From Macrostomum lignano (lineage: Eukaryota), in NCBI GenBank assembly GCA_002269645.1, contig NIVC01000460.1, forward strand, positions 1-64,000: a stretch of DNA of 64,000 nt. The letters are read 5' to 3'. This document shows, in pieces, positions 1,544-57,700 of this stretch (position 1 is its first letter; each line of letters opens with the position of its first letter). Made by a program: the position numbers and the translations under genes. Below the pieces are notes generated by a model that had not been told where the DNA came from, made no database searches, and saw nothing but the letters and a program-made list of their open reading frames with translations.

Positions 1544-4500
1544 ATGGCGCGGCGCAATCCAACGGTACACAGAGACATCAAAGAAACGGTCGGTACTTTC
1601 TCGATGGAGAAAGATTTTAACACATTTGTCGACCATTTTGACCTGGTATGTAGGGAATACAACCTACAAAATCCAGAGAAGGCACAGCTGCTGCCACCTC
1701 TTCTCCAAGGTACTGCGCGAGAAATTTACGGCAAGCTGGATGCGGCAACACAGCAAAATTATCCAGCACTAATCATTCAACTGCGCGCGCATTTCAACCG
1801 TTGCGGCACAAACAGATCAGTGCTGCTGCACAAGTTGCATAACAGAAGGATGCAAGCAACAGAATCCTTCCTCGCCTTTGTGGACGATATCCGCCAGATA
1901 ATTAAGGCACTGCATCAGCCACCGCTGCAAGCTGCGGACCAACCACCACTGGGAGCGGCAGAATTGGCCGCCAGAGAAAGACAACGATTGATGGATCGTG
2001 AACAAAACCTCATCCTGCACGTAATAAACAACGCACAGCCGTCACTTCGGGATAGACTTTTGCGTGAAAATATCGAAACCGAAGAAGACCTTTTGCGTTG
2101 CGGAATGCAATGGGAAGCCAGTGCCCCATTAATGACGACAGGCAACAATGAAGTGCAGAAACTGACGCAGCAACTAAACAAGTTAATGCAGCACCAGACA
2201 GCTGCTATCGCCGAACAAAAAAGACGAAATGAACAAGCCTCAGCCAGATGTTACTACTGCGGACAAGAAGGACATTATCAGATTAATTGTCCTCATTGGT
2301 CAACAAGATACGACAAGCCGCGACAGATATTCAACAATCAGAAGCCGCAGAAACCATGGCAGCACTATCAAAATCGCCAACAACAAGGAATGAGACGCTT
2401 CGGAAATGATAGACGCTTCGGAAATAATGACCGCTCCGGAAATGATGGCCGCTTCGGAAACGAAGGCCGCTTCAGAAGTAATGGCTACAGGCCACGCAAC
2501 GTCAGATACACACAAAGACAGCCGACGCAAGCAATGCCACGATACGCGAATGCCATCACGTACACACCGGAAAATGAACAGCAAGAACAGCAAGTGTTCA
2601 CAATTGACGACTTGGAAATGGACTTCACAGTCCCGGAACTTGACATCAGCTTGATCGAAAAGAAGACGACGCACGAGGACAACACTGACAACACAGAAGA
2701 GACGAATGAAACCGAAATGATCAAATTAAAAGAGACCACCGGAGACAGCAGAGAAAACAGGAAGAAAGTAAATCACAAGACAAGGGAGGAGGCGGAGAGC
2801 GACATCGGCAACGAAGAAAAGATGAAAACCGGCGAAGAAAACAACTATGAATCGACAACAGTGGATGACGACAAAACGAGCATGAAAGACAAAGAAATGA
2901 AAGAAGAAGAAGAATGTAGAAGTTACGGCAACGACCACGACTGCGAGGTGCGTGATGACACGAACGACTACCAAGCCGAAAGAGGAATGCAGGAAGAACC
3001 GAGAGCGGAGAATCTAAGTTCCGACAGCGATCAAGGCTACGAAATACAATGGAAAGATGAAGAAATGGAAAAAGAACAGGTGAAAGAAAAGCCGAGTTCC
3101 GACAGCGACGAATGCTACGAGATCCGATACAAACGAAATGGTGAAGCCTATATTCAAACGGTCGACTACAAGACAGAGAAAAGATACCAAACGCAATGGA
3201 GTGAAACAACGGAAACATCGGAAGAAGCCGCAGACGAAGATAATGAAATAACCAAAAAGCAAAGCGAATCAGAAGCCTTCCGCCTGGATCAGCCAATGGA
3301 ACAACCGAAAGAATATGATGCGGACATGGAAGATAACGAATGGCGATCGCAGCCAATGCCAGCAAGGACAACGGCAAAATCCAAGAAGTGGAAAAACTGG
3401 CTATTCTGGATCATCGTGATACTACTGATAGCAGTAGTCGCCAAAGCAACGGCAACGGAAAAGCCAATGATTTGTCCAACGGATGCGCATATCCAACCGA
3501 TGATCTACAAGATACCAACCGACATCAAATGCAGTTACTTCAAGACAAACCAGACAAAACCAAAGAAGATTACACTCGATCTCTACAAGGCTAACATCAA
3601 GAAGCATCGACAACACGGGATAGTATGCTTCAGAGACAAGCACCTGGTGGAAAAAGTTTGGCGCGGACAATGGAACCGGATCCGATTTAAACAACATGAG
3701 CTACATGTGTCGCACGCGGAATGCCTACAATGGAATCAAACACTATTTTCAAAGGATGGTGAACTGGAACCAGATGAGAAGGTCGGCAACGCACAGCTGT
3801 TCAGAACAAAGAATTCAGCCAACGGTCGATATATTCACTTCTTCGGAAAATGGAAAGAATATATGGCACGCAACAGCTACTTGATCAGAAATATTCCATT
3901 CTACTACAATCCGTACGAGAAAATGGAATCGTTACAGCTGCAACTAAGCGAATGTCGATACAGTGAAGGATGGTGTCCAACGCCGATTCTACGGAAGGAA
4001 GAACTACACAGTCTACCACTGAGTCCAACATATCATCAAGACTATCGATGGCAGATTGAGCACAGAGCACAATCACACTATGAGGAACCGTACAAATCAC
4101 GACAATACTTCTTCGCGTGGGAAGTTGAGCCGGAAATTGACTGCAAGCTTCAAAAGTATCACACAGTTGAAGGAGGACTACTGTCAAATACGTTTTTGGC
4201 AAAGTCAGGAGACTTGGCACTGACGTTTCAAAAGAAACCAGTCGAGCAAAAACTGAAATGCAAGGATACAGACAAGACACTATTCATCTCGGAACAAGAG
4301 ATACCAGTCTACGTAAAGGATGAAGACAAACAAACCTTCTTGGCAATCATCAATGGAACGTATCAGCAACAAGAAAAACAGAATAGAAGACGACGTGACA
4401 TCGAACGTCCCAAACTGGTGTCAAACCGGCTGTTGTCAGCAAAGATAACGGCTTTGGATCACAATCTACACAACCAGTTAAACCACTTGCATCGAACACT

Positions 4501-5344
4501 GGTCCAGCTAACTTGCAAAATGCACGCAATCAACTTAAATTATGCCAGACAAAACTACTATGTCAACCCTACGATGACTTTTCGTAAAATCACCGGAATG
4601 ACGAACGTTTTGGCAGTTCCAATATACGAGCATCTGTTGATATACAAGTGCACGCCGATACAGCACTTTAACATCTTGCCGTCAAACACGTCAACAACCT
4701 GCTACGATAAGCCAAGGATTGAAGCGTTCTACGAAGGAAAACGAATTCAGGGATTCTTGGACACGGTACACAACATCATCGTTGGCACCGCAATACCGAG
4801 ACCTTGCACCACGGCAGTAAACTACTATCAACTGGACAATGCACTACACGTCATCAAAACAACTGGAACGACAGCAAACGTCACAGAACCGGAAGTAATC
4901 GTCGACGAAAACTACGACATGGAGGATTTGAAAATCCGATTCAACAGAACGAAGTATACGCCATTCGCCGATATCCAACTTGACGAGATAACACCAGGAT
5001 GGACGATCAACGACTTCTTGCAAGCGTTCATCACCCAACGCAAGATGATTCACCAGCTGTTCACAAGAAAGGACAAAGGAACCGGGACAGGAAGATTTCC
5101 CGTCCTTGTTTCAATGGACAGCGCCATCAAATCATTTTGGACAAATAGCTTCTGGGAGCTGCTCAATGGAAGAGGCAGTCTCTATCAAGGATTCATCTTC
5201 TACGGTGCTTGCATTGTGTGGATTGTCACGGCAATCTTCATCATTTCATCGATCGTACGGTGCTTCAGTCAAACTTGTCCAAGAGCTAAGAAGACAGTGA
5301 ATGCCATAATGCAAAGAACGACAACGGAAGCGACAACAGTTTAG
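1544..5344 (+). CDS. gag-env: Gag-Env polyprotein (1266 aa): capsid, CCHC knuckle, acidic linker, internal signal peptide, class III (gB/chuvirus-like) glycoprotein with C-terminal TM
   Basis: CYYCGQEGHYQINC knuckle at 2249-2290; hydrophobic WKNWLFWIIVILLIAVVAKATA from 3389; RRRR furin-type site 4385-4396; Cys-rich NPT..C..CY.KP...GFLD..C block; several N-x-S/T sites; TM FIFYGACIVWIVTAIFIISSIV about 5192-5257. Confidence 0.88.
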   Translation: MARRNPTVHRDIKETVGTFSMEKDFNTFVDHFDLVCREYNLQNPEKAQLLPPLLQGTAREIYGKLDAATQQNYPALIIQLRAHFNRCGTNRSVLLHKLHNRRMQATESFLAFVDDIRQIIKALHQPPLQAADQPPLGAAELAARERQRLMDREQNLILHVINNAQPSLRDRLLRENIETEEDLLRCGMQWEASAPLMTTGNNEVQKLTQQLNKLMQHQTAAIAEQKRRNEQASARCYYCGQEGHYQINCPHWSTRYDKPRQIFNNQKPQKPWQHYQNRQQQGMRRFGNDRRFGNNDRSGNDGRFGNEGRFRSNGYRPRNVRYTQRQPTQAMPRYANAITYTPENEQQEQQVFTIDDLEMDFTVPELDISLIEKKTTHEDNTDNTEETNETEMIKLKETTGDSRENRKKVNHKTREEAESDIGNEEKMKTGEENNYESTTVDDDKTSMKDKEMKEEEECRSYGNDHDCEVRDDTNDYQAERGMQEEPRAENLSSDSDQGYEIQWKDEEMEKEQVKEKPSSDSDECYEIRYKRNGEAYIQTVDYKTEKRYQTQWSETTETSEEAADEDNEITKKQSESEAFRLDQPMEQPKEYDADMEDNEWRSQPMPARTTAKSKKWKNWLFWIIVILLIAVVAKATATEKPMICPTDAHIQPMIYKIPTDIKCSYFKTNQTKPKKITLDLYKANIKKHRQHGIVCFRDKHLVEKVWRGQWNRIRFKQHELHVSHAECLQWNQTLFSKDGELEPDEKVGNAQLFRTKNSANGRYIHFFGKWKEYMARNSYLIRNIPFYYNPYEKMESLQLQLSECRYSEGWCPTPILRKEELHSLPLSPTYHQDYRWQIEHRAQSHYEEPYKSRQYFFAWEVEPEIDCKLQKYHTVEGGLLSNTFLAKSGDLALTFQKKPVEQKLKCKDTDKTLFISEQEIPVYVKDEDKQTFLAIINGTYQQQEKQNRRRRDIERPKLVSNRLLSAKITALDHNLHNQLNHLHRTLVQLTCKMHAINLNYARQNYYVNPTMTFRKITGMTNVLAVPIYEHLLIYKCTPIQHFNILPSNTSTTCYDKPRIEAFYEGKRIQGFLDTVHNIIVGTAIPRPCTTAVNYYQLDNALHVIKTTGTTANVTEPEVIVDENYDMEDLKIRFNRTKYTPFADIQLDEITPGWTINDFLQAFITQRKMIHQLFTRKDKGTGTGRFPVLVSMDSAIKSFWTNSFWELLNGRGSLYQGFIFYGACIVWIVTAIFIISSIVRCFSQTCPRAKKTVNAIMQRTTTEATTV

Positions 5345-5529
5345 AACTAACAGAAACTGCACATTGTGAGGTTCAAGGGCAACCGACACTAGCAACGCGG
5401 CTATATCCATCGATTCCGACAACACCAACGGCACCAAGGATACAACCACCCAACTATCAAGCAGAACAGCACGAGCCAAAATGGCCGGAAAACTACGTCT
5501 GTACGCTACACGCCGAGATTGGCAAAGCA

Positions 5530-8500
5530 ATGGCTCAGGTCATTGTCAACAACTTGCCATGTCGAGCACTACTGGATTCAGGCAGCTCGATCACAGTCAT
5601 CTCGCAACAATTATGCAACAAGCTACGACTCGCGGTACGACCAGCAGCAATCGCAGTTGCAGGAGCAGGAGGACATTCACTCAACATCCTAGGAAAAGCA
5701 GATATCGACTTGAAAATTGCTAATAAACAGCTGACGGTCCCGACGTACATCATCGACAGACTACCAAACCAAGACGTCATCGTTGGAATCGACACGTTCA
5801 AGCAGCTTCAACTACCATTGACCTTCGACTTCAACAAGCAAACGTTTAGGATCGACACGGTGGAGCAACCGCTGATCAACCAGATTCGAGTACTACCGAA
5901 AGTAACTCTGCAGCAAGATGTCATTATCCAGCCTGAAAGCGCATGCTGGGTCAGAGCGAAAACGACCAGCGCGGCAGATGAAGCAATGATATTTGATCCA
6001 CACAGGAGAGTCACGGCAAAACATCAAATCATGATGCCTACGGCACTAGTGCTGGTTGCAAAGGATAAGCAACTGCCAGTACAAATCTTCAACCCGAACA
6101 CAGAAACGGTTCATCTACGACAAGGAATGTGCATCGGTCATCTCAACACCCAAGCATCGGTTATGCTGATTGAACAAGCGACTCCACGACTAACAGAGGA
6201 AGAATTTCAAAAGAAGATCAATTTGGATGACAGCCCGATTACGGAACAGCAAAAGAGGAAAGTTCGACAGCTGTTGTGGAAGTACAACGAAGCCTTCTGC
6301 CATCATGATTACGACATCGGACGAGCCAAGGACATCAAACAGGAAATCAAACTTCTGCCGCACACGGAACCAATTCAGTGCAAGCCGTACCCGATCGCCA
6401 AGCATCTGCAACAACACTTTGACGAAATCATCGATAAAATGCTAAAGCACGGCATCATCAGCAAAGCTATTTCGGCTTACTCCTCACCGTGCCTACTGGT
6501 ACAGAAGAAGGAGACAAACGAAAGACGACTCGTATGCGACTTCAGACTGTTGAACAAGTACATACCGACGGATCAGCAAAGCCTACCGAAGATCTCCGAA
6601 CTACTAGCAAAGCTCAACACGGCAAAATTGTTCACGGTGTTCGACCTACGTCATGGATTTTGGCAAATTGAAATCGAGAAAGAGTCACGACAGTACACGG
6701 CTTTCAAAACCTACAATGGACAAGTATACGAGTACAATCGATCGCCGATGGGACTTAGCAACAGCCCAGCAACGATGAGTCGACTAACAGCATACATGCT
6801 AGCAGGATGCACGAACCTGCTGCACTATGTCGACGACATTTTAGCCTACGGAGAGGATTTCGAGCGACTCTACGAAGCTACGGAGAAGGCCCTAGCGCTC
6901 ATTCAACGCCAAGGTCTGAAGCTACAACCAACTAAATGCAAATTCTTCCGAGACAACGTGCGTTACCTGGGACATCAGGTGACAGCCAAAGGAATCTCAC
7001 CGGACCCAGACAACGTGGAAAAGGTGAAGAAGTTTCCTACGCCAACCAGTATAACGAAGGTCCAATCATTCCTTGGACTTGCGCAATACTTCAGGAAGTT
7101 CTTACCTAACTTCGCAAAGACAGCAAAGCCACTGTACGACCTGCTCAAGTTCGACAAATGGAAGCAAGACAACTGGACACAGAGACAACAGGAAAGTTTC
7201 GACGAAATCAAACGACAGCTGACATCAGACGCACTGCTACAGCATCCGGACTTCGACAAGCCCTTCATCATCGAGACAGACGCCTCAGGAACGGGACTCG
7301 GAGCAGTCCTACTACAGGAAACCGAGGACAAGAAGGAACGACCTATTGCCTACGTCAGTCGAGCACTCAAACCAAATGAAACAAAGTGGTCAGCTACGGA
7401 ACGAGAGCTACTAGGAGTCTTGTTCGCCCTGCGACAGTTTCATTACTACATCTATGGTTCTCCAATACAGACGATAGTACGCACGGATCATGCACCATTG
7501 ACCTACGTCGTAACTACAAAAGGACAGACCAACAACCGACTCATCAGAATGACACTCAAGATCCAGGATTACAACTACAAACTCGTCTACAAACCAGGAA
7601 TTACCAACAAAGCCGCGGACGCCCTGTCAAGAGCCTATGAAGTCAACGCCATTCATCCAATCCCTAACATCAAGGAGTTGGTGGATGAAACCGAGCGCGA
7701 CAACTTCTACCAAGCGGTTAAAGACGACGACAAGAACATCAAACTCAGTCCCATGGAACGAAAATTCCTACGCAAGCAACGACAACACCTAACAATCAAT
7801 AAGTCACGGCTCTACTGGATGAGCGACAATAAACCCAAGATCTACATACCATATTCGTTTCGGCAAGCAATTCTCAACGAGCTACACGACAACCCACTCG
7901 CTGGACACCTGTCGGCAGCAAAGACCATCGCGAGAGTGGAACAATACTACTTTTGGCCAACTATGTACGGCGACATCAAGCAGTATTGCAACAACTGCCA
8001 TTCATGTGCTGCATCAAAGACAGGACGACGACAGAAACCGCAGCTACAGTCCATTCCGAAGTCGACTACAATGGACTGTCTAAGCATCGACATCACCGGA
8101 CCGCTACCACCGAGCTGTCTCCAGGGCATCGCCTACACCTACATTCTAACCGCCTTGGATATCTTCTCGAAGTTTGCTATCGCCATACCGATACCGGACA
8201 TCACAGCTCAGACAGTGGCAATGAGTTTCTTCAACGAAATCATTTGCAAGTACGGCACGCCGAAGAACCTCACATCGGACAACGGATCGCAGTTTACATC
8301 GCAACTGTTTCAGCAAGTCGTAAGGATTCTCAACATTACGCAGATCTACACATCGACCTACAATCCGAAGGCAAACATGGTTGAACGGTTTCACCGCAAC
8401 CTGCACGAGATGATTACACATTTCGCGCACCAACAGCCGGAAGACTGGATCATCTACCTGCAATCTGTAACAATGGCCTACAACAGCGCTATTCATCGAT

Positions 8501-9039
8501 CAACGGACAATACGCCATTCTTCCTAATGTTTGGACGAGACTTCCAACCGCCGAATCTGCTCGCACAGCAATTGCTACCATCGCAGTACGTGGAAGTACC
8601 GACTTCCATTCAGAAATTCGTCACGCAACTACACCTCGCATGGAAGATCGCCAAGCACAACATTGACAACCAGGTGGCTCTGACCACCGGCAACGACGCG
8701 AGATCGACAACCCTGACGGCCGGCGACATCGTCTACCTACACTACCCGCCACAGCAGACGCATAAACATGCACAGAAGTACAAAGGACCCTATCGAGTGG
8801 TCCAACTAACGTCACCAACAACGGCACGCCTGGCTAATGTACAAGATCCACATCAGCACCAGTTCTACGTACACATTCATCGACTAAAGAAGATCAACAC
8901 TGACACAGCGACGTTTCTACCGACATTAGACAACGCTGATCGCACGCGTTCAACGAACCGCCACATCGCGACGAAGCACGAGGAGACTCAAACGACAGAT
9001 GTGAGCCAGCCACATGGCTACAACCTACGACCACGCTAG
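5530..9039 (+). CDS. pol: Pol: aspartic protease, RT, RNase H, integrase (frame open from 5290)
   Basis: LLDSGS protease, YVDD RT (6826), FIIETDASG RNase H, HDNPLAGH..CHSC zinc finger, integrase SIDITGP / SDNGSQF / VERFHR; no internal stops. Confidence 0.97.
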   Translation: MAQVIVNNLPCRALLDSGSSITVISQQLCNKLRLAVRPAAIAVAGAGGHSLNILGKADIDLKIANKQLTVPTYIIDRLPNQDVIVGIDTFKQLQLPLTFDFNKQTFRIDTVEQPLINQIRVLPKVTLQQDVIIQPESACWVRAKTTSAADEAMIFDPHRRVTAKHQIMMPTALVLVAKDKQLPVQIFNPNTETVHLRQGMCIGHLNTQASVMLIEQATPRLTEEEFQKKINLDDSPITEQQKRKVRQLLWKYNEAFCHHDYDIGRAKDIKQEIKLLPHTEPIQCKPYPIAKHLQQHFDEIIDKMLKHGIISKAISAYSSPCLLVQKKETNERRLVCDFRLLNKYIPTDQQSLPKISELLAKLNTAKLFTVFDLRHGFWQIEIEKESRQYTAFKTYNGQVYEYNRSPMGLSNSPATMSRLTAYMLAGCTNLLHYVDDILAYGEDFERLYEATEKALALIQRQGLKLQPTKCKFFRDNVRYLGHQVTAKGISPDPDNVEKVKKFPTPTSITKVQSFLGLAQYFRKFLPNFAKTAKPLYDLLKFDKWKQDNWTQRQQESFDEIKRQLTSDALLQHPDFDKPFIIETDASGTGLGAVLLQETEDKKERPIAYVSRALKPNETKWSATERELLGVLFALRQFHYYIYGSPIQTIVRTDHAPLTYVVTTKGQTNNRLIRMTLKIQDYNYKLVYKPGITNKAADALSRAYEVNAIHPIPNIKELVDETERDNFYQAVKDDDKNIKLSPMERKFLRKQRQHLTINKSRLYWMSDNKPKIYIPYSFRQAILNELHDNPLAGHLSAAKTIARVEQYYFWPTMYGDIKQYCNNCHSCAASKTGRRQKPQLQSIPKSTTMDCLSIDITGPLPPSCLQGIAYTYILTALDIFSKFAIAIPIPDITAQTVAMSFFNEIICKYGTPKNLTSDNGSQFTSQLFQQVVRILNITQIYTSTYNPKANMVERFHRNLHEMITHFAHQQPEDWIIYLQSVTMAYNSAIHRSTDNTPFFLMFGRDFQPPNLLAQQLLPSQYVEVPTSIQKFVTQLHLAWKIAKHNIDNQVALTTGNDARSTTLTAGDIVYLHYPPQQTHKHAQKYKGPYRVVQLTSPTTARLANVQDPHQHQFYVHIHRLKKINTDTATFLPTLDNADRTRSTNRHIATKHEETQTTDVSQPHGYNLRPR

Positions 9040-9159
9040 AGTTTAGAGAACAACCCCGTGTAGTGACCGGGATAAAGAATAGCACTACAGCTTCGCAAGC
9101 TTGTCGTAAAAGGCGACTAATCCGAGCGACACAAAGACAGCGACAAATTGACGACAATT

Positions 9160-9594
9160 ATGGGCAACGCACTGTCAAAACAGGCGCCCCAGCCTCAGCA
9201 GCTATATGACTGCCCGATATGTTTAACTGATGACTTGGCTGTCAAGCCACCGACTATTTGCATCAATGGACATAAAGTTTGCGGACAATGTTTAAGTGAT
9301 TCACACTATATTCAGCCCTGGCAGAGTTGTCCCCTCTGTAGAGATAGTTTGCGACAATGTGCCTATTGTTATTCTTGGCGCACGTTTCAATATTGTAACC
9401 ACCAACATTTTATTTGCATGCACTGTTTGAAGCAAACCGCTAGTAGGGGCATTATAGGATGCCCCTTATGTAATAGTATGCCGCGAGACTGCACGTTTCG
9501 AAAGTGGTGTCGTATCAAACCTGATGCCACTCGATGTCTACGCGATATTCGAGTTTTGACCGCTATATGTACTGAAAAGTTTTTAGAGTTTTGA
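9160..9594 (+). CDS. Accessory double-RING zinc-finger protein with N-myristoylation motif (144 aa)
   Basis: ATG at 9160 gives MGNALSK; RING1 CPIC..CINGHKVCGQC..CPLC; RING2 CAYC..CNHQHFICMHC..CPLC; lies between integrase stop and PPT. Confidence 0.85.
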   Translation: MGNALSKQAPQPQQLYDCPICLTDDLAVKPPTICINGHKVCGQCLSDSHYIQPWQSCPLCRDSLRQCAYCYSWRTFQYCNHQHFICMHCLKQTASRGIIGCPLCNSMPRDCTFRKWCRIKPDATRCLRDIRVLTAICTEKFLEF

Positions 9595-9683: not shown

Positions 9684-9720
9684 AAAACTCGGGACGAGTT
9701 TTTTCGTAAAAAAGGGAGAT
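9684..9720 (+). promoter_or_regulatory. Pre-PPT hairpin and polypurine tract
   Basis: AAAACTCG-GGA-CGAGTTTT hairpin followed by AAAAAAGGGAGA, just upstream of the TG start of the 3' LTR. Confidence 0.8.
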
Positions 9721-9722
9721 TT

Positions 9723-10586
9723 TGTAGAGTGTTCTACCTCCCGTTAAAAAAGGAAAAAAGAAGATAATCGTATAATACTACTATAAGTAAGTAAGTACAC
9801 GCATGTGCGCCTAAGCTTTGAATGAATCACGCTACCAGAAAAAGATGTTACCAGAATAATACGCCATGAGCCATTTTCCCCTTTTAGCGCAACACGTGAA
9901 TTGTCATGATACTATTTTGGATCAAAAACTTGTCTATAAATACAAGCGATCTGAAGCGGTACCGGAGCCATTCTCCCCACGGAAGAGGAGCGCTCCGAAG
10001 AGGAAGCCTTAGGAGGACTTCCTGATCTACCAAGTCAATCGAGACTCGGTCGAGTTGTTGCGGTAAGCCTTCCTTATTTGCGCCCGTTGTGTTAGAGACG
10101 TCTCGCTCAAGTCTATTGAGACTTGAGTCTAATTGAGTCTGTTGAGACTCTTGAGTCTGTTTAGACTCCATTGGTTGCAGTCTCCAGAAGGACTGCCCCT
10201 GATAGATCTTAGAGGACTATCAGTGGTTTCCGGAGCTATACCTAGAGTGCATAGAGGCACTGCTAGAAGAAGGAGGCTTAATTTAGACCGCAGTTTGGCG
10301 CAGGGTACCCATTGTTGCTACGAGGCCTCTGATTGGTCCTGACGGAAGATACCGGCCGGAAGAACTTATCGGAAGTACAAGAGGAACCAGGACCAGAGCA
10401 ACTGAAGAATCAAGGCGCCTGATCTACGAGATCTACTGACAAGTTCCTAGCGAGAACTACTCAAGAAATTCAAATCCGGATTAAAGGTAATTGAATACCT
10501 TCGTTTGACTTACTGGGTTGCCTAGCTGTTGAGCTAGAAGTGATTGTTCCTTGATTATCGAAAGTCGGGTAATAAGGAACACATCA
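9723..10586 (+). repeat. 3' LTR of element 1 (864 bp, TG...CA)
   Basis: Starts TGTAGAG after PPT, ends ACATCA; matches window 1-828. Confidence 0.95.
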
Positions 10587-10762
10587 CAACCGCCGTTTAG
10601 CAATGCTGCACCCATTAATCCCGTAATTAATTAATTATTTATCATTTATTGCCGCGAGAATATTTTTGCGCGCGAGATCAGACTGAAAAATTAATTTTTT
10701 ATATCTGTTGAATTCCCTTGGCTTTGACATTTTTTGTTTGTTACTGCTAATCGGGGCTGGGG

Positions 10763-48700: not shown

Positions 48701-51700
48701 GGGAGAGCCTGGATTGGTGTCAGGGACAGCCTGTATTGGTGTCAGGGAGAGCCTGGATTGGTGTCAGGGAAAGCCTGGATTGGTGTCAGGGACAGCCTGG
48801 ATTGGTGTCAGGGACAGCCTGGATTGGTGTCAGGGACAGCCTGGATTGGTGTCAGGGACAGCCTGGATTGGTGTCATGGAAAGCCTGGATTGGGGTCAGG
48901 GACAGCCTGTATTGGTAACAGGGAGAGCCTGGATTGGTGTCAGGGACAGCCTGGATTGGTGTCATGGAAAGCCTGGATTGGGGTCAGGGACAGCCTGTAT
49001 TGGTGTCAGGGAGAGCCTGGATTGGTGTCAGGGAAAGCCTGGATTGGTGTCAGGGACAGCCTGGATTGGTGTCAGGGACAGCCTGGATTGGTGTCAGGGA
49101 CAGCCTGGATTGGTGTCATGGAAAGCCTGGATTGGGGTCAGGGAGAGCCTGAAGTGGCGTGGGGCTGCGCCAATAAAATTAACAGCAGCAACAATAACTC
49201 ACTGCTAGGGGGAACAAAACGGCGTCCTTGACAACGAATCGCTTAACCCGGAAGCCCGGACTCAGATGGGCAGCCTGGTACACGGCGCCCAGTGCAGCGG
49301 CTTCGTCCGTGTTGATGGACTTGCCCAGCTCGGTTCTGGGAACAATAAAGTATATAAAATACTTAAGGGTTAGAAATTAAGGATGGGTGTATCGAATTCA
49401 TCCATTCTAGAAGGCCAAGCGTTACCTTCCGGTGGCTTTGAGTAGAGCCGACTGCACCTTGGGATTGCGGGTGCCGCCGCCCATGAGCAGCACTTCTTTG
49501 ATCAGGTCCATCGAGATCTGGGCCATATTTAGCGCGCTTTCAATCGGTCTGGTGACCCGTTCGAACAGGTCCGAGCAGATGTTCTCCAGCTCCTCGCGGG
49601 TGACCTTCACTTTGAAGTCTTTGTCCTCGAATACGCTCTCGATCTGGATTGAGGTTCAACCGACGTTTTACCCATTGAACAATTGATGTGGCCGCAGCCT
49701 TCTGCTGCAAGCATAGGGCCGCAGTCACATCTTAGGCACTGCTGTCCGCTGCTAGTATCTGGAATAGGAATTTTCTGCTGCCTCCATGCACTCTAAGCAG
49801 CCTTCCTTGGCGCTCAGAAGTTGCACAATATGGCGCAATCTTCAACATAGGAAATTAGGAAGTTTTGCCTAGCCTAGGGTTAGTTAGTGGAAGCCGCCAA
49901 ATTTGGCGCTTGCCTGTACTGTTGTTGCCTGGCCTGCCGCATACAATCGCTCAGTGTACGCAAGTCTAGTTAGCCGCACTCCTCCCCTTGTGCGCTTGCT
50001 GGACCCTTCCCCTTTTCTGCTCTCTCGTTCCTCCTGCGTCCGAGCCTCTCCCCATGCGTCATTCTATTTTTAGACTGAGGGTTTCGCGGACCCCGTGTCC
50101 CGAGCTGAACCCTCCCTCACGTGCAGCCTTGTGCGCACAAGCCCAAATTTGGCATGCTATTGTCACTAGTGGCTTGAGGCGACTGTCGGCGCTTCGTTCA
50201 AGCTACTTTCTCCCCCATGTTTAATCAATATCTGTTGTGCATCATTATCCGCACTTTTCGGGCTGCAGTTCCATGGTCAAGCCACGGAATGCCCAAACGC
50301 TCCACCCTCCGCGTTCTATATTAACGAATGCAGGCCCGCTTGTCTGAATTTTTCCTCAGAACCGTTTTGACCGCTGGTCAGTCTTGTCGAGAGCCTTCTC
50401 CAAGTCAAGCGCTCTAGCGCCGGTTAACAGCGAAGCAAAGCTCCTGAGCAGGTCTTGGTAGAGCTTTAAGCATCGCTAAGCAGCTGCAAGCTCCTGAGCA
50501 GGTCTTGGTAGAGCATTGCAGCGCTCAAGCAGAAAGCACGCTCCTGAGCAGGTCTTGGTAGAGCATTGCTAGTGCTATAGCTCTGGTTTTCCAGCCTACC
50601 CTATTGGCAGGAAATCAGTTAGCTGAAGCCATTCTGCTAGTGTCTATTCGCGACACAGGCGCGAATAAGAGTGAGAGTGAGTGTGCAGTCGCAGCACTCG
50701 TGCGCGATTCTAAGACTAGCTGTTAGTTTATAGGCCTAGAGTCTATTGCTGCTTCAGGCGCATAGACCTATTCCTCGCCGCCCATCTGCGCGAGACGTAG
50801 CTATTAGGTTAGTAGGAGTTAGGGGTCCTCTGAGAGCTAAACTCAGACACGCTCAAGCGCGGACATTGTCAGTGCCAGGACTGCGCCGCTCAGGCCATTT
50901 GCTACCATTGAGTCCTGTCACTTGGACATTGAAATATCTGAGACTAGTTGTTCTAGCGTTATTTATTTGCGTGGAGCCCAAACAGACCCCTTCATTGCGG
51001 ATCCTACGGTTCCCACGCTGGTGGCAGCACTACCCTTAATTTTAGATTTCCCCAGTCTCAACCCCCACAAGCGTGCTTGCTAAGGTTGCCTCGGCCAATA
51101 GCAGTCCGCCTCACCCTAGCAGCCAGATACCGAGACACAACACTGGTGGCAGCGGTGGGATACCAAGATTTACAGACCCGAGCCAAGGCAATCAGAAGCA
51201 AGGGCACTTTACTGGTGGAGCAGCGGTTGGGATTACGATACCGACTCCAACTCCAGACCAAATAGTTAGGAAATTTAGTAGTGAAGCAGCTGTTGGGAAT
51301 ACCATACCAATAAGCGCTCAAGAGGGAACAGCATCCTATCAGTTAGTAGATAGATTTCCTAGTATATCAGCTATTAGTATTAGATCGCGCGAAGCTCGCT
51401 GCAAGTTAGAAACAGTTGAATTCTCGCCTTATAAAAGTGAGAATGTCATTGAACCGATCCCGTTCGTTAGAGAGTGGTTCAGAGCAAATTCCGAATGAGA
51501 ACAGGGGCGCAGCCGCCGCTGCAGCCGCATCTCCATGCGCTAGCCCTGATGATGGCATATTTGGAGCAGACGCAGACTTCATTAGAGGTCTTGGCGCAGG
51601 CGTGAATGCTAACCTGCTGCAAAACCTGCTCGTAAATATGAACAGGCAGATGAATCTGCAGACTAAAAAGCAGATTAAAATCGCCAAGTACAAGCCATCA

Positions 51701-54700
51701 ATGGACATTCGAATTTGGCTCGAAATGTTTGAGATGAAGTGTGAGAGAGAAGAAGTCTACGACATGAGAGAGAGGAAAGCTTTAATCATGGATAGCCTAG
51801 ATATGGAGACTGCCCTCGCCGCAGTTCTGCATATGAAGCTACCCCATGATCTTCCTTATCACAGCTTTCGGGAGCAGCTCATTGAGCGCTTCGAGAAGCT
51901 TGGCGGACCAAACGCCTATAGGGAAGAGTTTCGCTCTCGATTACAGCGAAAGAATGAGTCAGTTGATGACTATGCTGAAACGCTTCAGGCACTCGGAGAA
52001 CAAGCATACCCGAACCTGAGAGCTGACCAAATTGAGATAGAGCTCGTAGATGCTTTCACCCGCGGTGTACGCGTAAGCCCTGACACCCGCGAGAAGCTTC
52101 TACTGATGCAACCGGCTACGATTATGGAGGCAAAGCGTGCGCTCAAGCGCATAGAGGCTGCGCGAGAGTTCGCCAATCGAACCCGTGACGCGCCCGTCCG
52201 GATGATGCAAGATGACTCACGATCATCAGAGCATTCCATCCCCAAAGGCCTCCAAGAGTTGATGACAAGGCAGACAGCCGCGCTGGAACGCCAGCAGCAG
52301 GCTACGCAGCAGTTGCTTGAGCTTGTAAGCTCGCAAAGCGCGTGTCCGCCAGGACAGCAGCAGCCGAGAGCTGCGCATCACCAGCAGTCCCGCTGGTCGA
52401 GCAACGTCGAGATTCCGAGATATCGTCAGCGTGCAACATGCTACGGCTGTGGCCAGGAACGCCATCTTCTCGGACAATGCCAACGCTACAAAGAGCAGCA
52501 AGCGCTCGGGAAGCGCTATTCGTGCGAACGCTGCGGAGAGTCAGGACATGCTGTCCAAGACTGTCAGGCGCGTGGTATTGATCGACAGTACAAGAAGAAA
52601 GTTTCGGGAAACGGCGCCGCAGGCGGTTGCGACGGCAACAACCCCTGCGTCAACAGCCAAGAGCCCGCAGCCAAGAACACCCGGCGACAGTAAGCTTCGC
52701 TGGAGGAGAGGAGGCACGACGCTCAGATCAACAGGACTTGAGTGAGATCGGTGCCAATTTTGTACAAAATTTATGCGATGCCGACCCATATGTTACGGCA
52801 CATATATCCCGATGCAGTGTCGCCTTCCTGTTAGATACCGGTAGCAGACGGAATCTAATTGGCAGCGATACTTGGTCTGCGATTAAGGCGCAGCACCCAA
52901 ATTGCGTAGTTTCGCCTATTTATTCCGATGCGATCCAAATGTATGATGGATCTGCACTAGCGCTGCTAGGCAAAGTTTTTATTCCGATTGAGTTTGGCGA
53001 CTTTAGCGCTGAAACTGAATTTTACATCGCTAAAGGCGCTCATGAAAATATTTTGGGGATTAACTTTATGAGAGAAAACTGCCTTGAGCTAAATTTTCAG
53101 CAAGGTATGTTGACTTTCAAATCGTTAACCCGTGTGCCAGTGAGATTTACTAGACGCGAAGCTGCAGCCAGTAGGTTGTATACAGCCGACAGGTATACAA
53201 TTCCACCGCGCAGCACACGCGTAGTTGAAGTGAAAGTGGCGAAAGGGCGCCAAGATTTAAATGGCACGCCCCTGATTTTCGAGCCACTGAAATCCGGTAA
53301 TAGAGTAGGCAGCCTTACTTATACTATGGCGCCAGCACTCTTAACCGTGAATGAAGGCCACAGCTATTTAGAAGTAATCAATAATAGTTCGGCTGAAATT
53401 ACGATTAGAAACAATGTACTGCTTGGAGTAGCTAGTCCGCTTAACTGGCAAGACTTAGCTTACTTCGAAGAGCCATCAGAGGCGCGAGTCAGACACTTGC
53501 AGCCGGATGACGCCCAAGCAGGAAAGAAGAGCTGGATAGATCAGATAGAAATTAGTGACCAGCTCTCAGCAGATCAGAAGAGATTAGTTAGAGAACTGCT
53601 GCTCCAAAAGAGCGCAGCTTTCGCCAAAGACGAGCTAGACCATGGGCTCACGCATCTAGTGACTCATGAGATGATCATGACTGATAACACTCCAGTCAGA
53701 ATTCCGCCGCGCAGAGTGCCGCCGCACTTGCAGGAAAAGCTCGATGGCGTAATAGACGAGATGTTGGCAAAGAACATCATCAGGCCAGCATACTCCAGTT
53801 ACAACTCGCCAGTGCTGTTAGTACCTAAAAAGGATGGAACAGTTAGATTAGTGTTAGATTATCGCGAGTTGAATAAGAAATGTTTAAGGCACGTCTATCC
53901 TCTGCCTAACATTCAAGATACCTTTGCTTGCTTAAAGGGCTCGAATTTCTATTCTTGCCTAGACTTAGCGCAAGGTTTCTTTCAAATTCCGCTTAGACAA
54001 GAAGATCAGCATAGAACAGCCTTTTCAATTATTAATCGTGGCCAATTTTGCTTTAATGTGCTACCAATGGGCTTGACTGATTCGCCCGGCTCATTTCAAA
54101 GGACCATTAATTTGCTCCTAGAAGGATTGAAGCCCCACATTGCGCTCGGGTATATGGATGACATTCTAGTTCATTCAGTAACCTTTGAGCAGCATCTTGC
54201 GCACTTAGAAACAGTGCTGCAGCGCGTAATTGACGCGAAACTGAAGCTGAAGGCGAAGAAATGTTCGCTGTTCTCAGCTGAGTTGGCTTACTTAGGACAT
54301 AAGCTAACTCCTGAAGGTGTCAAGACGGATGAGGCGAAGCTCGCCGCTATCCGCGATTGGCCAGTGCCGCGCACAGCCTCGCAGCTGCGCAGTTTTCTAG
54401 GCCTGGCCCAGTACTATAAGAAGTACATTAAGGACTACTCTAGTATAGCATCGCCATTGCACGCTTTAACGCGCAAAACTATCACTAGCCTGTCAAAATT
54501 ATGGACTGATGAGCATCAACAAGCTTTTCAGGCCCTGAAGGACAAATTATGTTCTTCAGAAGTTTTAGCTTATCCTGAATTTACCAGTGATCCTAAGGTG
54601 TCATTCATCTTGGACACAGATGCTAGTGATATAGGAATTGGCGCATGCTTAGGCCAGATTCAGTCTGATGGCGGAGAGCATCCTATTGCTTACTTCAGCC

Positions 54701-57700
54701 GCAAGTTGTCAGCTGCAGAAATGCGCTACACGACAACTAAGAAAGAGTTGTTAGCGATTGTCGATTCTCTCCGACATTTCCGCTACTATCTATTAGGGAA
54801 GAAGTTTAAGATTAGGACAGACCATTCCGCGCTTTGCTGGCTACTTCGCCAAACTGAAGCCACCGGAATTCTAGGTCGTTGGGTGCAGAGGTTGAGTGAG
54901 TTTGATTTCGAGTTGTCCCATAGAGCTGGGAAACTGCACGTCAACGCTGACACGTTGTCCAGGAAGCCGGAGACCCCGGCCCAATGTTCAACTAGCGCCT
55001 TGAATAACCCATGCGAGATTCGAGAGGCAACTGTCTCAGGCCCCCGACTGACCGCATTGCTGGAGGAGAGTGCGCCAGCGAAAGATGCTGCTGTAAAGCG
55101 CATCAAGAGTGCCTGCGAGAAATCAGACTGGGAAAGAAGCGAGGAGGCCACTGTGAATTCAGCCCACCCGCCGGAAATCCCTCAACACTCAGGATGTGAT
55201 GAAGGCGCGTTAAGGCCCGACTGCTCTCCCATGAGCCCGCCTAATGCAACCGATAGTCTAACTAAGACTCCATGGCTCGATTGCTTTCCCATAAGCCTGC
55301 CAGGTGTCGCCAAACCAAGTGCGCAGAACTCGAATTGCTCCCCTCTGAGCCGTTCTGCTGCAATGCCGACTATCTCGAAGGTCAAATCGAAGCGATCACT
55401 GACCCTGATGTCGAGCAATCCTGCTGAGATGGGCACTAAAGCGTCGATACGATGCGGATTCCAATCCCGCCTTCGACATGCCAATCAGCAGTGGATGAAG
55501 AATTCTGCCAGAGCCAGAAAGGCGCCTCAGAATTGGCTGCCAGAAGCTGAGTGCTCTGATGATGATCATGATGCAACAGGTTCGGACTGCACGACAGAAT
55601 CTGAGACCAATCGACAGCCTGATTCGCCCGATGCATTGCCGAAGCCTCAGTTTGATTTCGACTCCCACCAGTCACCGTCGCTGCCAAGATGTCGATTTCT
55701 GCTGTCTGAAGCCCTAGAAGCACCGATTACGAGACAGGAGCTGCTTGAAGCGCAGAAGAGAGACCCTGTACTCGCGAAAATCGCTGAGCTGAAGGCGCAG
55801 AGTGCGCCCAAACCGTCTTTTGACGAGAGACTAAGCATGAGCAAGGAAATGAGAAACCTGCTCGGGTACTATGAGACCCTATGCTTAGATGATGATGGCA
55901 TTCTAATGATAGATTTCGATGATAATCGACCCATTAGATTTGTCTTGCCAAAGGAGTTAGACGCTGCAGTAATGCGCGCACTGCATGACTCCCCGCTAAG
56001 CGGCCATTTGGGCCAGAAAAAGACTCTGCAGAGAGTCCAGCAGTTATTCTGGAGACCCGGAATTCACACTGTGGTCGATCGTTATATCGCCCAGTGCAGA
56101 GCTTGCTTAGAGAGCAAAGCCAGGCGCAAAGTGCACTTGCCGCCTCAGAAATTCCCGGTCGGAGATGTGTTAGACCGCGTACACTTGGAAATCATGGGCC
56201 CAATCAATCAGCCTAGTGCTGCAGGCCATAGATATGTCCTAACCTTGTGTGACGCGACGTCGAAGTATCCGTGGGCCTATGCTCTGAGAAATCAGAAGGC
56301 CAAGACGATTATCAAAGTGATTCAGGAACAGTTCATTCCAATTTACGGTGTGCCAGCCCAGTTCCATTCTGATCAAGGAACTAATTTTACGGGCGCCGCC
56401 TTTAATAATTTTTGCAAATTATATGGGATAAGACACACAGTAACTTGTCCGTATAATCCTGCATCTAATGGACTTGTTGAGAACCTGAATCGGAATATTA
56501 AGTCTGTGCTGACTTGTCTGTTAGAGACCAAGCACAAAGATTGGGCACACTATCTGCCAGCTTGCTTAATAGCGCTGCGCACGGCTGTTCACACAGTGAC
56601 AGGATACAGCCCGCATTTTCTGATGTTTGGCCGCACGTTCAATTTGCCAATTGAAAATGAATTGCGCCACTCACCTGAGTATCAGAATTTGCCAGATTAT
56701 GTGCGCCAATTTGAAGGTAGATTGAGTGAAGCGACCGCCCTAGCAAAAGAGCGAATTCGTGCTCAGCAGGATTTGCGCGAGGATCACTTTGCCGGAAAAC
56801 CGCAAGTGAGTCCGCTGCAGCCAGGACAATTAGTGTTCTTGGCGAATCCAGTGCTAGAGGCAGGTGAAGCGCCGAAATTCCATAGACCGCGGAAGGCCGT
56901 CTATAAGGTGATCGAGCAAAAGGGCGAGCTGGTCTACAAGATCCGTCGCCAAGGCGAGAAGCGCCGTGCTCGAAAAGAGGTGCTTGTAGTGCACCGAAAG
57001 AATCTGCTCCCCGTGCTAACTGCCGACTGTCTCCCACAGGTCGCAGAAGCACAGCACCCGATGCACCGACAGCGTTGTCATCCGGCGCCACAGGCTGCTA
57101 CCGAAGCGCCAGGCTGCCACGCTGAGTTCTGCACCGAGGATTCCGACGAGGACGGAGACGAGAGCATTGTCGACGTAAATTGGGCGCACCCAGCTGCAGC
57201 CGCCGCTGCGCTGAGGTCGACGCGCTCGCCGCTGCAAGCGCGATCGCGAGGCGCCAATGCTGAAGTTGTCGACCAAGGAGCTGAAACGGAGAGAGGAGAT
57301 TTTGCGCCCATGGAGGTTGCGCAGTTGCCGTCACGCAACCCAAGCCCACGCGAATCTCCTATTCCCGCGCTCCCATCCCCCATCGCACCTGAGCAACAAC
57401 TAGGAGAAATTTCGACTATAGATAGGCAGGCAACTAGGACTAGGGACGTCGATCTAGCGACACTAAACCGCCCAGAGCGATTGCGCAGGGAACCTGATAG
57501 GTTACAGGTCAACCCTAGCCGCAAGACATATGCGTCTCGCCTGGCCAGATTAATTAACCGAATATTTCGCCGGAAATAATCGCCCTACAGCGACAATTAT
57601 GTCAGATGAAGAAAATTTTAGGCCGGAGCGACGGGCTGAAAGCTCGCGCCCGATTACCCCCGACGTAGCCCATCAGGCGCGTCTGCCAACAGAAGAGAGC

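Follow-up and report, generated by a model that had tools for sequence, protein, structure and literature searches.

A Ty3/gypsy element of Macrostomum lignano with a Gag-Env-Pol polyprotein, a predicted class III Env, accessory RING genes, and a conserved RNA motif

The element and its Gag-Env frame

The window analysed here comprises 64,000 nucleotides (nt) of the flatworm Macrostomum lignano (contig NIVC01000460.1 of assembly GCA_002269645.1, positions 1 to 64,000) and opens with a Ty3/gypsy retroelement whose gag, env, and pol genes stand in that order on the forward strand, where its other parts also lie. In terms of boundaries, a 5′ long terminal repeat (LTR) occupies positions 1–828, its start cut off by the contig end, and a 3′ LTR of 865 nt, running from TG to CA, occupies 9723–10587. 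Sequence comparison of the 828 nt present in the 5′ LTR with the 3′ LTR reveals no mismatch. A primer-binding site (PBS; 831–842, 2 nt past the LTR) and a polypurine tract (PPT; 9708–9719) can be read from the sequence, and the pol frame (5290–9039), which is another frame than that of Gag-Env, has Pfam matches of gypsy type for protease (5,536–5,805), reverse transcriptase (RT; 6,502–6,981), RNase H (7,174–7,572), and integrase (7,846–8,367). Direct TG...CA LTRs, PBS, PPT, and this domain order identify a Ty3/gypsy (Metaviridae) element. The start of the 5′ LTR and the target-site duplication lie beyond the contig end. The element is a young, recently active insertion in a satellite-rich region and, with its Ty3/gypsy pol and an intact env of predicted glycoprotein B (gB) type, an errantivirus in the operational sense (Ty3/gypsy pol with intact F- or gB-type env) given by Chary and Hayashi 2026 (PMC13524379).

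The frame upstream of pol is open from stop to stop between 1,424 and 5,344 and encodes 1,266 residues counted from the Met at 1,544. A first-pass annotation of this DNA had described it as one open reading frame (ORF) joining Gag, an acidic linker, an internal signal, Env, and a transmembrane (TM) segment, and our ORF and domain analysis bears this out. The N-terminal part (1544–2233) is a putative capsid-like Gag domain, as suggested by its position, its conservation, and its relatives; a Pfam search with this domain gave no match. The ratio of nonsynonymous to synonymous divergence (dN/dS) in the capsid region is 0.00–0.02 against four sibling subfamilies, and capsid domains stand before env in the relatives P0027, P0041, P0042, and P0046. 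This domain is followed by a CCHC zinc knuckle (2249–2296, residues 236–251; PF00098, E = 5.4e-4, just below the Pfam cut-off), a basic region in which repeat analysis detects four repeats spaced by 18 nt (2,396–2,485), and an acidic linker leading from Gag to the membrane (2564–3358, residues 341–605; 31% Asp and Glu), which evolves fast (dN/dS 0.30–0.58 against the four subfamilies).

Following the linker, the chain is predicted to enter the membrane. The putative internal signal sequence (3389–3457) is basic on its N side and has its hydrophobic stretch at residues 620–638 (from nt 3,401; hydropathy 2.41); a basic-then-hydrophobic segment is present at the equivalent place in the loci L016 and L017 and the proteins P0001 and P0003. 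The predicted Env TM anchor follows at 5189–5245 (residues 1,216–1,234; hydropathy 2.43). These are the two clear membrane segments of the Gag-Env chain, whereas the strongest segment in Pol reaches only 1.51 and lies inside the integrase. Six N-glycosylation sequons and 12 cysteines all fall between the two hydrophobic segments, and we judge the cytosol–lumen–cytosol topology proposed in the annotation to be probably right. Met 3,356, also considered there as a dedicated env start, is present in all six close chains and absent from the four most divergent of the ten chains examined (L016, L017, P0001, and P0003); a separate env start is thus not a family trait.

The Env-Pol junction and the Env fold

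The window copy ends its Gag-Env frame at 5,344, where comparison with other copies locates a frame break and early stop (5325–5344). Genome searching for copies yielded 74 matches (70 of 262 candidates scored), and the junction was counted in every copy extending to the end of env, 59 in all (61 loci less the duplicates L002 = L021 and L004 = L022). The frame runs unbroken from the TM segment into the protease in 45 of these 59 copies; 13 are frame-broken, the window included, and one has an in-frame stop. The 501-nt junction of the window is identical in five other copies, with the break near 5,325–5,330, and the remaining broken copies lose the frame at other places. For all 11 broken copies that were scored, there is a continuous copy differing by no more than 0.6%; the break therefore marks no lineage. 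Contigs built from short reads bridge the junction in three of four public runs, all of them of the continuous type at full depth, and the contig of the fourth run ends there. The break in the window may be a real defective allele or an assembly error, as such contigs drop rare variants.

Because 45 of 59 copies run from env into the protease, the product of the family is one Gag-Env-Pol chain of ~2,500 residues. The gag-env fusion of the earlier description is thus real, and gag-env continuity is found in other genomic copies, but in the family as a whole the ORF does not normally stop at 5,344. A single ORF of 2,370–2,538 codons is present in 12 of 13 whole-element loci, which were mostly chosen for long open frames. 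The spacing from TM segment to protease is 121 residues in all six sibling chains in which both marks were found, including a 62%-identical family, and 143 residues in P0003. Among distant proteins (29 of 58 hits scanned), five of the 29 (P0010, P0017, P0027, P0033, and P0046) carry a Gag marker, an env match, and a protease or RT in one chain. A −1 frameshift at the env/pol overlap of the window was rejected, as no slippery heptamer of the form X XXY YYZ occurs in 5,271–5,345. No GT..AG intron was seen at the 15 of 17 contig joints inspected, a result from contigs that cannot exclude splicing, and a search for SL1 RNA gave no match, but its control was likewise without one.

A second single-ORF family is represented by P0003 (2,852 residues; locus L077, C270:3204-11759), an env-pol chain labelled as Macrostomum lignano that matches four genome places at 100% over its full length, which marks this flatworm as the host. 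Its Env is 28% identical to that of the window element and contains a Thr-rich stretch; further relatives are 62–63% identical in pol. P0003 is publicly annotated as a hypothetical protein or RNA-directed DNA polymerase.

The Env ectodomain (3446–5188) is assigned to the class III fusogens on the basis of Pfam, an AlphaFold2 model, and Foldseek. The sequence matches the Pfam family PF24664 (Monjiviricetes_fusion) with E = 1.1e-5, below the family cut-off, and the ESM Atlas gives it a Monjiviricetes_fusion score of 0.97 with low recognition. The best match in a sequence search of the PDB had E = 0.77, and a word-index search with Env found one match among 2,974 candidates. The AlphaFold2 model, a monomer from a 46-row alignment (mean predicted local distance difference test score, pLDDT, 77.9; predicted template-modelling score 0.51), resembles PDB structures of herpesvirus gB (best E = 2.7e-23; template-modelling score 0.44–0.47) and, in BFVD, the glycoprotein (G) of Beihai rhabdo-like virus 3 (E = 1.0e-24) and, second-best, that of Midway nyavirus (E = 1.4e-24). 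The class III identity read from the sequence in the annotation is upheld by these structural matches, and the model indicates a gB/nyavirus-type class III fold for Env. The uncharacterised entomopoxvirus proteins W6JPK9, Q9YVZ3, and A0A916KPE9 are also among the best class III fusogen-like matches.

The putative fusion loops, WRGQW (3,659–3,673) and HFFGKW (3,836–3,853), are placed by their positions in the model and by the relatives. WRGQW (model residues 72–76) forms the tip of a long β-hairpin and HFFGKW (131–136) lies in the next long loop, a placement judged from secondary structure alone that is consistent with the bipartite fusion loops suggested earlier; aromatic residues at both positions are kept in close relatives. 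A furin-type R-x-R-R site can be read at 4,385–4,396. Env is under purifying selection (dN/dS 0.06–0.12 against the four subfamilies). As modelled, it has in common with herpesvirus gB and the G proteins of nyami-, chu-, and rhabdoviruses the fold, two aromatic loops in the putative fusion domain, a long central helix, and a C-terminal TM segment. In contrast to these viral fusogens, to which its sequence is only 8–14% identical, it forms the central portion of a retroelement polyprotein. Env-like matches were also observed in P0006, a protein with an N-terminal NADAR domain, in P0054 behind the integrase of a BEL/Pao element, and in P0002, apparently a chimeric gene model that includes a glycosyl hydrolase domain.

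RING genes and an RNA motif behind pol

An accessory double-RING ORF of 144 residues with a Met-Gly start (9160–9594), identified by Pfam and sibling comparison, follows pol. It is shortened relative to sibling ORFs of 222 residues, and its own RING matches are below the Pfam cut-offs. The genome contains 151 matches to the RING ORF. RING ORFs sit between the end of pol and the PPT, one to three per element: one in the window, two in L073, three each in L074, L076, and L072, where some are shortened, and no fewer than two in L075. The L073 LTR is 99.9% identical to that of the window. Full-length members (~200–225 residues) comprise two C3HC4-like repeats and a helical domain that carries a Trp-Pro motif (model pLDDT 87); 12 Cys and 2 His are invariant in all 12 aligned ORFs. 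Relative to the reference ORF, paralogues share 19–40% identity. Sina_RING is matched by 11 of 12 members (best E = 2.4e-7), and the best ESM Atlas score is 0.91 with low recognition.

The C3HC4 zinc-ligand pattern is present and a RING-like fold is indicated, with fold matches at noise level: a BFVD search gave none at E 0.001, RING chains reached only Z = 4.3–4.8, and the best match of the C-terminal helical domain (Z = 6.6) is likewise noise. No homologue outside the element family appeared among 1,315 and 3,246 candidates, which is weak evidence. Purifying selection acts on the RING ORFs (dN/dS 0.09–0.29 in the seven of 11 pairs that are not saturated). The RING proteins probably serve as ubiquitin ligases, with a part in budding or counter-defence. 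They are reminiscent of viral RING proteins (arenavirus Z, herpes ICP0, and the RING ligases of giant viruses) and of SIAH/Sina in having a C3HC4-type RING with Sina-like spacing. They differ from these in their two RING-like repeats and helical domain, with no fold match above noise. The start Met-Gly-x-x-x-Ser, which we take to be a myristoylation pattern, is confined to the group of subfamilies around the window. Arenavirus Z is myristoylated, and the Met-Gly start of this one subfamily recalls it but is absent from the other RING subfamilies of the element.

In terms of expression, translation of the RING ORF by read-through of the pol stop was rejected, as the spacer differs from one subfamily to another and has in-frame stops at 9,061 and 9,118. 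All four second RING ORFs have a pyrimidine tract with a final CAG at their ATG. According to PMC5730564, the genus Macrostomum makes wide use of trans-splicing, which resolves polycistronic precursors.

A conserved RNA motif of 63 nt (9055–9117) follows the pol stop and precedes the first RING ORF, whose ATG is 35–60 nt downstream in the subfamilies read. Alignment and pairing suggest an H-type pseudoknot (9,055–58 with 9,068–71; 9,059–65 with 9,083–89) followed by two hairpins (9,090–9,100 and 9,103–9,117). The motif is 95% identical in L016 and L017, where synonymous sites are mostly saturated relative to the window and the 15 nt upstream are only 27–33% identical, and 78–79% identical in a third family, in which the middle hairpin is partly broken. 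Over 10 distinct rows, 96.8% of cells pair, a cell count reached by none of 500 shuffles; the pseudoknot stem has two pairs with changes on both sides, a pair count reached by 162 of 500 shuffles. Patterns derived from the motif match 101 and 109 genome places, compared with 0 and 5 for reversed controls. Rfam covariance models, including those of exonuclease-resistant RNAs, internal ribosome entry sites (IRES), and ribozymes, gave only two chance microRNA matches (E = 4.3 and 7.4), far below cut-off, and the pistol, twister, hammerhead, and hepatitis delta virus ribozymes that we had considered have no Rfam match. Nested folding is no better than for shuffles (z = −1.4 to +0.05), by a method that cannot score pseudoknots.

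Genomic setting, relatives, and proposed expression

The rest of the window, from 10,763 to 61,735, consists mostly of tandem repeats with periods of 4–200 nt (49 rows), and the long ORFs there are read-outs of repeats. A second Ty3/gypsy element is present at 51,410–57,579 on the forward strand, with a gag (51,410–52,693) that overlaps a pol frame of 1,665 residues. It has ~350 residues without assignment between RNase H and the integrase zinc domain and no env match, and its RT is 34% identical to that of the first element. Elsewhere in the genome, element copies are densely clustered or in tandem on contigs C87, C1130, C2121, C272, and C2447, each with several RING or motif matches, which are possibly self-insertion hot spots or loci resembling PIWI-interacting RNA clusters. 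Synonymous distances to the window are uneven by domain (L015: protease 0.04, Env 0.54; L014: capsid 0.03, protease 0.84), and this unevenness, seen for L014, L015, L019, and L020, points to recombination between subfamilies.

The annotation had placed its novelty in the architecture and the host lineage. This part is not supported: PMC13524379 describes elements with a gB-type ENV and the order GAG-ENV-POL from Nematoda, Bryozoa, and Platyhelminthes, which are not monophyletic, and the window element has the features of that group, with env of gB type between gag and pol in a flatworm host. Supplementary file 1 of that paper lists Platyhelminthes_Rhabditophora_Mlig_errantivirus_2, of gB type, with 16 copies and LTRs of ~864 nt that are ~9.7 kb apart. 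The window element has the same 12-nt PBS 2 nt past the LTR, LTR length, LTR spacing, gB-type Env, gene order, flatworm host, and multi-copy state. The two very likely belong to the same family, likened by PBS and by LTR and element length rather than by sequence. The gag-env-pol layout with a class III Env is thus already published, and this family is very probably in the published catalogue. In the parts of the paper covered here, the accessory cassette, RNA motif, and polyprotein topology are not discussed; the main text is without the terms “RING”, “fused”, “single ORF”, “frameshift”, and “splic”, and seven supplements are without “RING”.

The window RT is 31–37% identical to the RTs of other distant gag-env-pol proteins. 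In a midpoint-rooted tree of 11 rows that holds no named reference, whether of the nematode non-canonical endogenous retroviruses (NERV) or otherwise, it groups with those of L016 and P0003 (support 100/98), and P0018, labelled as nematode, falls in the opposite half. This placement agrees with the non-monophyly of GAG-ENV-POL elements without testing it. Nematode NERV elements reportedly have a continuous gag-env-pro-pol ORF, a nyamivirus-like Env, and extra small ORFs. Such a continuous ORF is found in 45 of the 59 copies here but not in the window copy itself, and the host is a flatworm, not a chromadorean nematode. NERV elements and the present one both have ENV before POL, an order that PMC13524379 credits to Sacco et al. 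2022 (J Gen Virol, doi 10.1099/jgv.0.001739); Midway nyavirus G, as noted, is the second-best fold match of the window Env. LTR elements of bdelloid rotifers (Rodriguez et al. 2017, PMC5408684) likewise carry family-specific extra ORFs of ~200–230 residues behind pol. The bdelloid ORF3 genes encode env-like, GDSL, DEDDy, coiled-coil, or TM proteins, whereas tandem arrays of RING paralogues are found here, and the text of PMC5408684 is without “RING”, “zinc”, and “ubiquitin”. Neither the RING cassette nor the RNA motif, both missed by the first-pass annotation, was found described in literature listings or in the text of the two closest papers (PMC13524379 and PMC5408684), a coverage that lay outside subscription journals, repeat databases, figures, and Sacco et al. 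2022; both seem undescribed so far.

Gene order, reading-frame continuity, the modelled Env fold, selection, the RING cassette, and the RNA motif are the observations from which we propose how the element is expressed, an account that we consider likely as a whole. The recently active Ty3/gypsy family encodes one Gag-Env-Pol chain; it would send this chain along the endoplasmic reticulum (ER) route with Pol as the tail of Env and express its RING genes subgenomically. Translation would begin in the cytosol, and the chain would enter the ER by way of its internal signal sequence. Cleavage by signal peptidase would then free Env and leave Gag tethered to the membrane by the linker and signal anchor, as with flavivirus capsid and hepatitis C virus core. 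Env, whose modelled fold is that of a class III fusogen, would be a lumenal, glycosylated, furin-cleaved trimer. As the TM segment is expected to stop transfer, Pol would be made as the cytoplasmic tail of Env, ~120 residues below the membrane. At the site of budding, clustered Env could pack Pol and dimerise the protease, which would release RT and integrase, and enveloped particles would spread between cells, germ or stem cells being the probable targets. The RING proteins would probably come from subgenomic RNAs; the first gene would depend on the pseudoknot motif and the second on a splice or trans-splice acceptor.

Several points weigh against this account. Most retroelements need and make Gag in excess, and a 1:1:1 ratio of Gag, Env, and Pol is far from this; it is the main unsolved point, and no mechanism supplying extra Gag was found in this analysis. 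Signal cleavage is predicted from hydropathy and pattern, and processing, particles, fusion, and ligase activity are all predictions from sequence or model. For the cassette, an acceptor-like context is absent at all five first and both third RING ORFs, and the first RING ORF carries a stop in many close copies, which suggests that some of the family is losing the cassette and that copying can proceed without it in at least some rounds. For the motif, the aligned rows are related and of about four types, so that support for the pseudoknot is modest.

The Gag excess is also what speaks for a rival that accepts the long ORF but has the ratios set by RNAs, whether spliced, trans-spliced, or early-polyadenylated, that give extra Gag and a separate Env, the fusion then being partly an economy of genome layout. 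Met 3,356, kept in the six close chains, would suit such an Env, as would the trans-splicing and polycistronic precursors that PMC5730564 reports as widespread in the host genus; the absence of this Met from L016, L017, P0001, and P0003 speaks against it, and we regard this rival as a possibility on the unlikely side. That Gag-Env is a complete ORF ending at 5,344, with Pol expressed separately by frameshift, splicing, or an internal start, is what the window itself displays together with the five copies of identical junction. It is nevertheless very improbable, given the 45 continuous copies, the several places at which the others break with a near-identical continuous copy known for each one scored, the lack of a slippery site, and the continuous type of all three run contigs that cross the junction.

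An Env retired from cell-to-cell spread, which would only anchor assembly at the ER while the element copies itself intracellularly, is compatible with the Discussion of PMC13524379, which holds the infectivity of gB-type errantiviruses to be unknown. The aromatic loops, the furin-type site, and the strong purifying selection are kept across subfamilies, however, and make this rival improbable. For the RNA motif, a role unrelated to RING expression comes closer to our preferred subgenomic reading, if still short of an even chance: it could act in cis in export, packaging, dimerisation, or reverse transcription, its place after pol being fortuitous. The export elements of MusD and IAP are located 3′ of pol, and the motif is retained in copies with a broken first RING ORF. 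On the other side stand its short distance to the first RING ATG and the small pseudoknots of plant viruses that stall Xrn1 and thereby yield coding subgenomic RNAs.

The copy-level evidence for one native Gag-Env-Pol chain raises the question of how Gag is supplied and how Pol enters the particle. Tandem RING accessory genes would bring to an LTR element a counter-defence tool familiar from DNA viruses, for which we found no Ty3/gypsy report, and the RNA motif is compact, conserved, and without an Rfam family. A bolder and, taken whole, rather doubtful extension would make the element a “complex” invertebrate endogenous retrovirus, with a membrane-spanning Gag-Env-Pol chain, Env trimerisation gating both protease and Pol packaging, and an operon of RING ligases. 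If this were true, the expanding and contracting double-RING array would target host silencing or restriction factors, and a new Xrn1-resistant or IRES-like pseudoknot would serve the first RING gene and spliced-leader acceptors the next. As recent members of the family are present in multiple copies in a flatworm amenable to RNA interference and transgenesis, the spread of gB-type errantiviruses can be studied in the animal.

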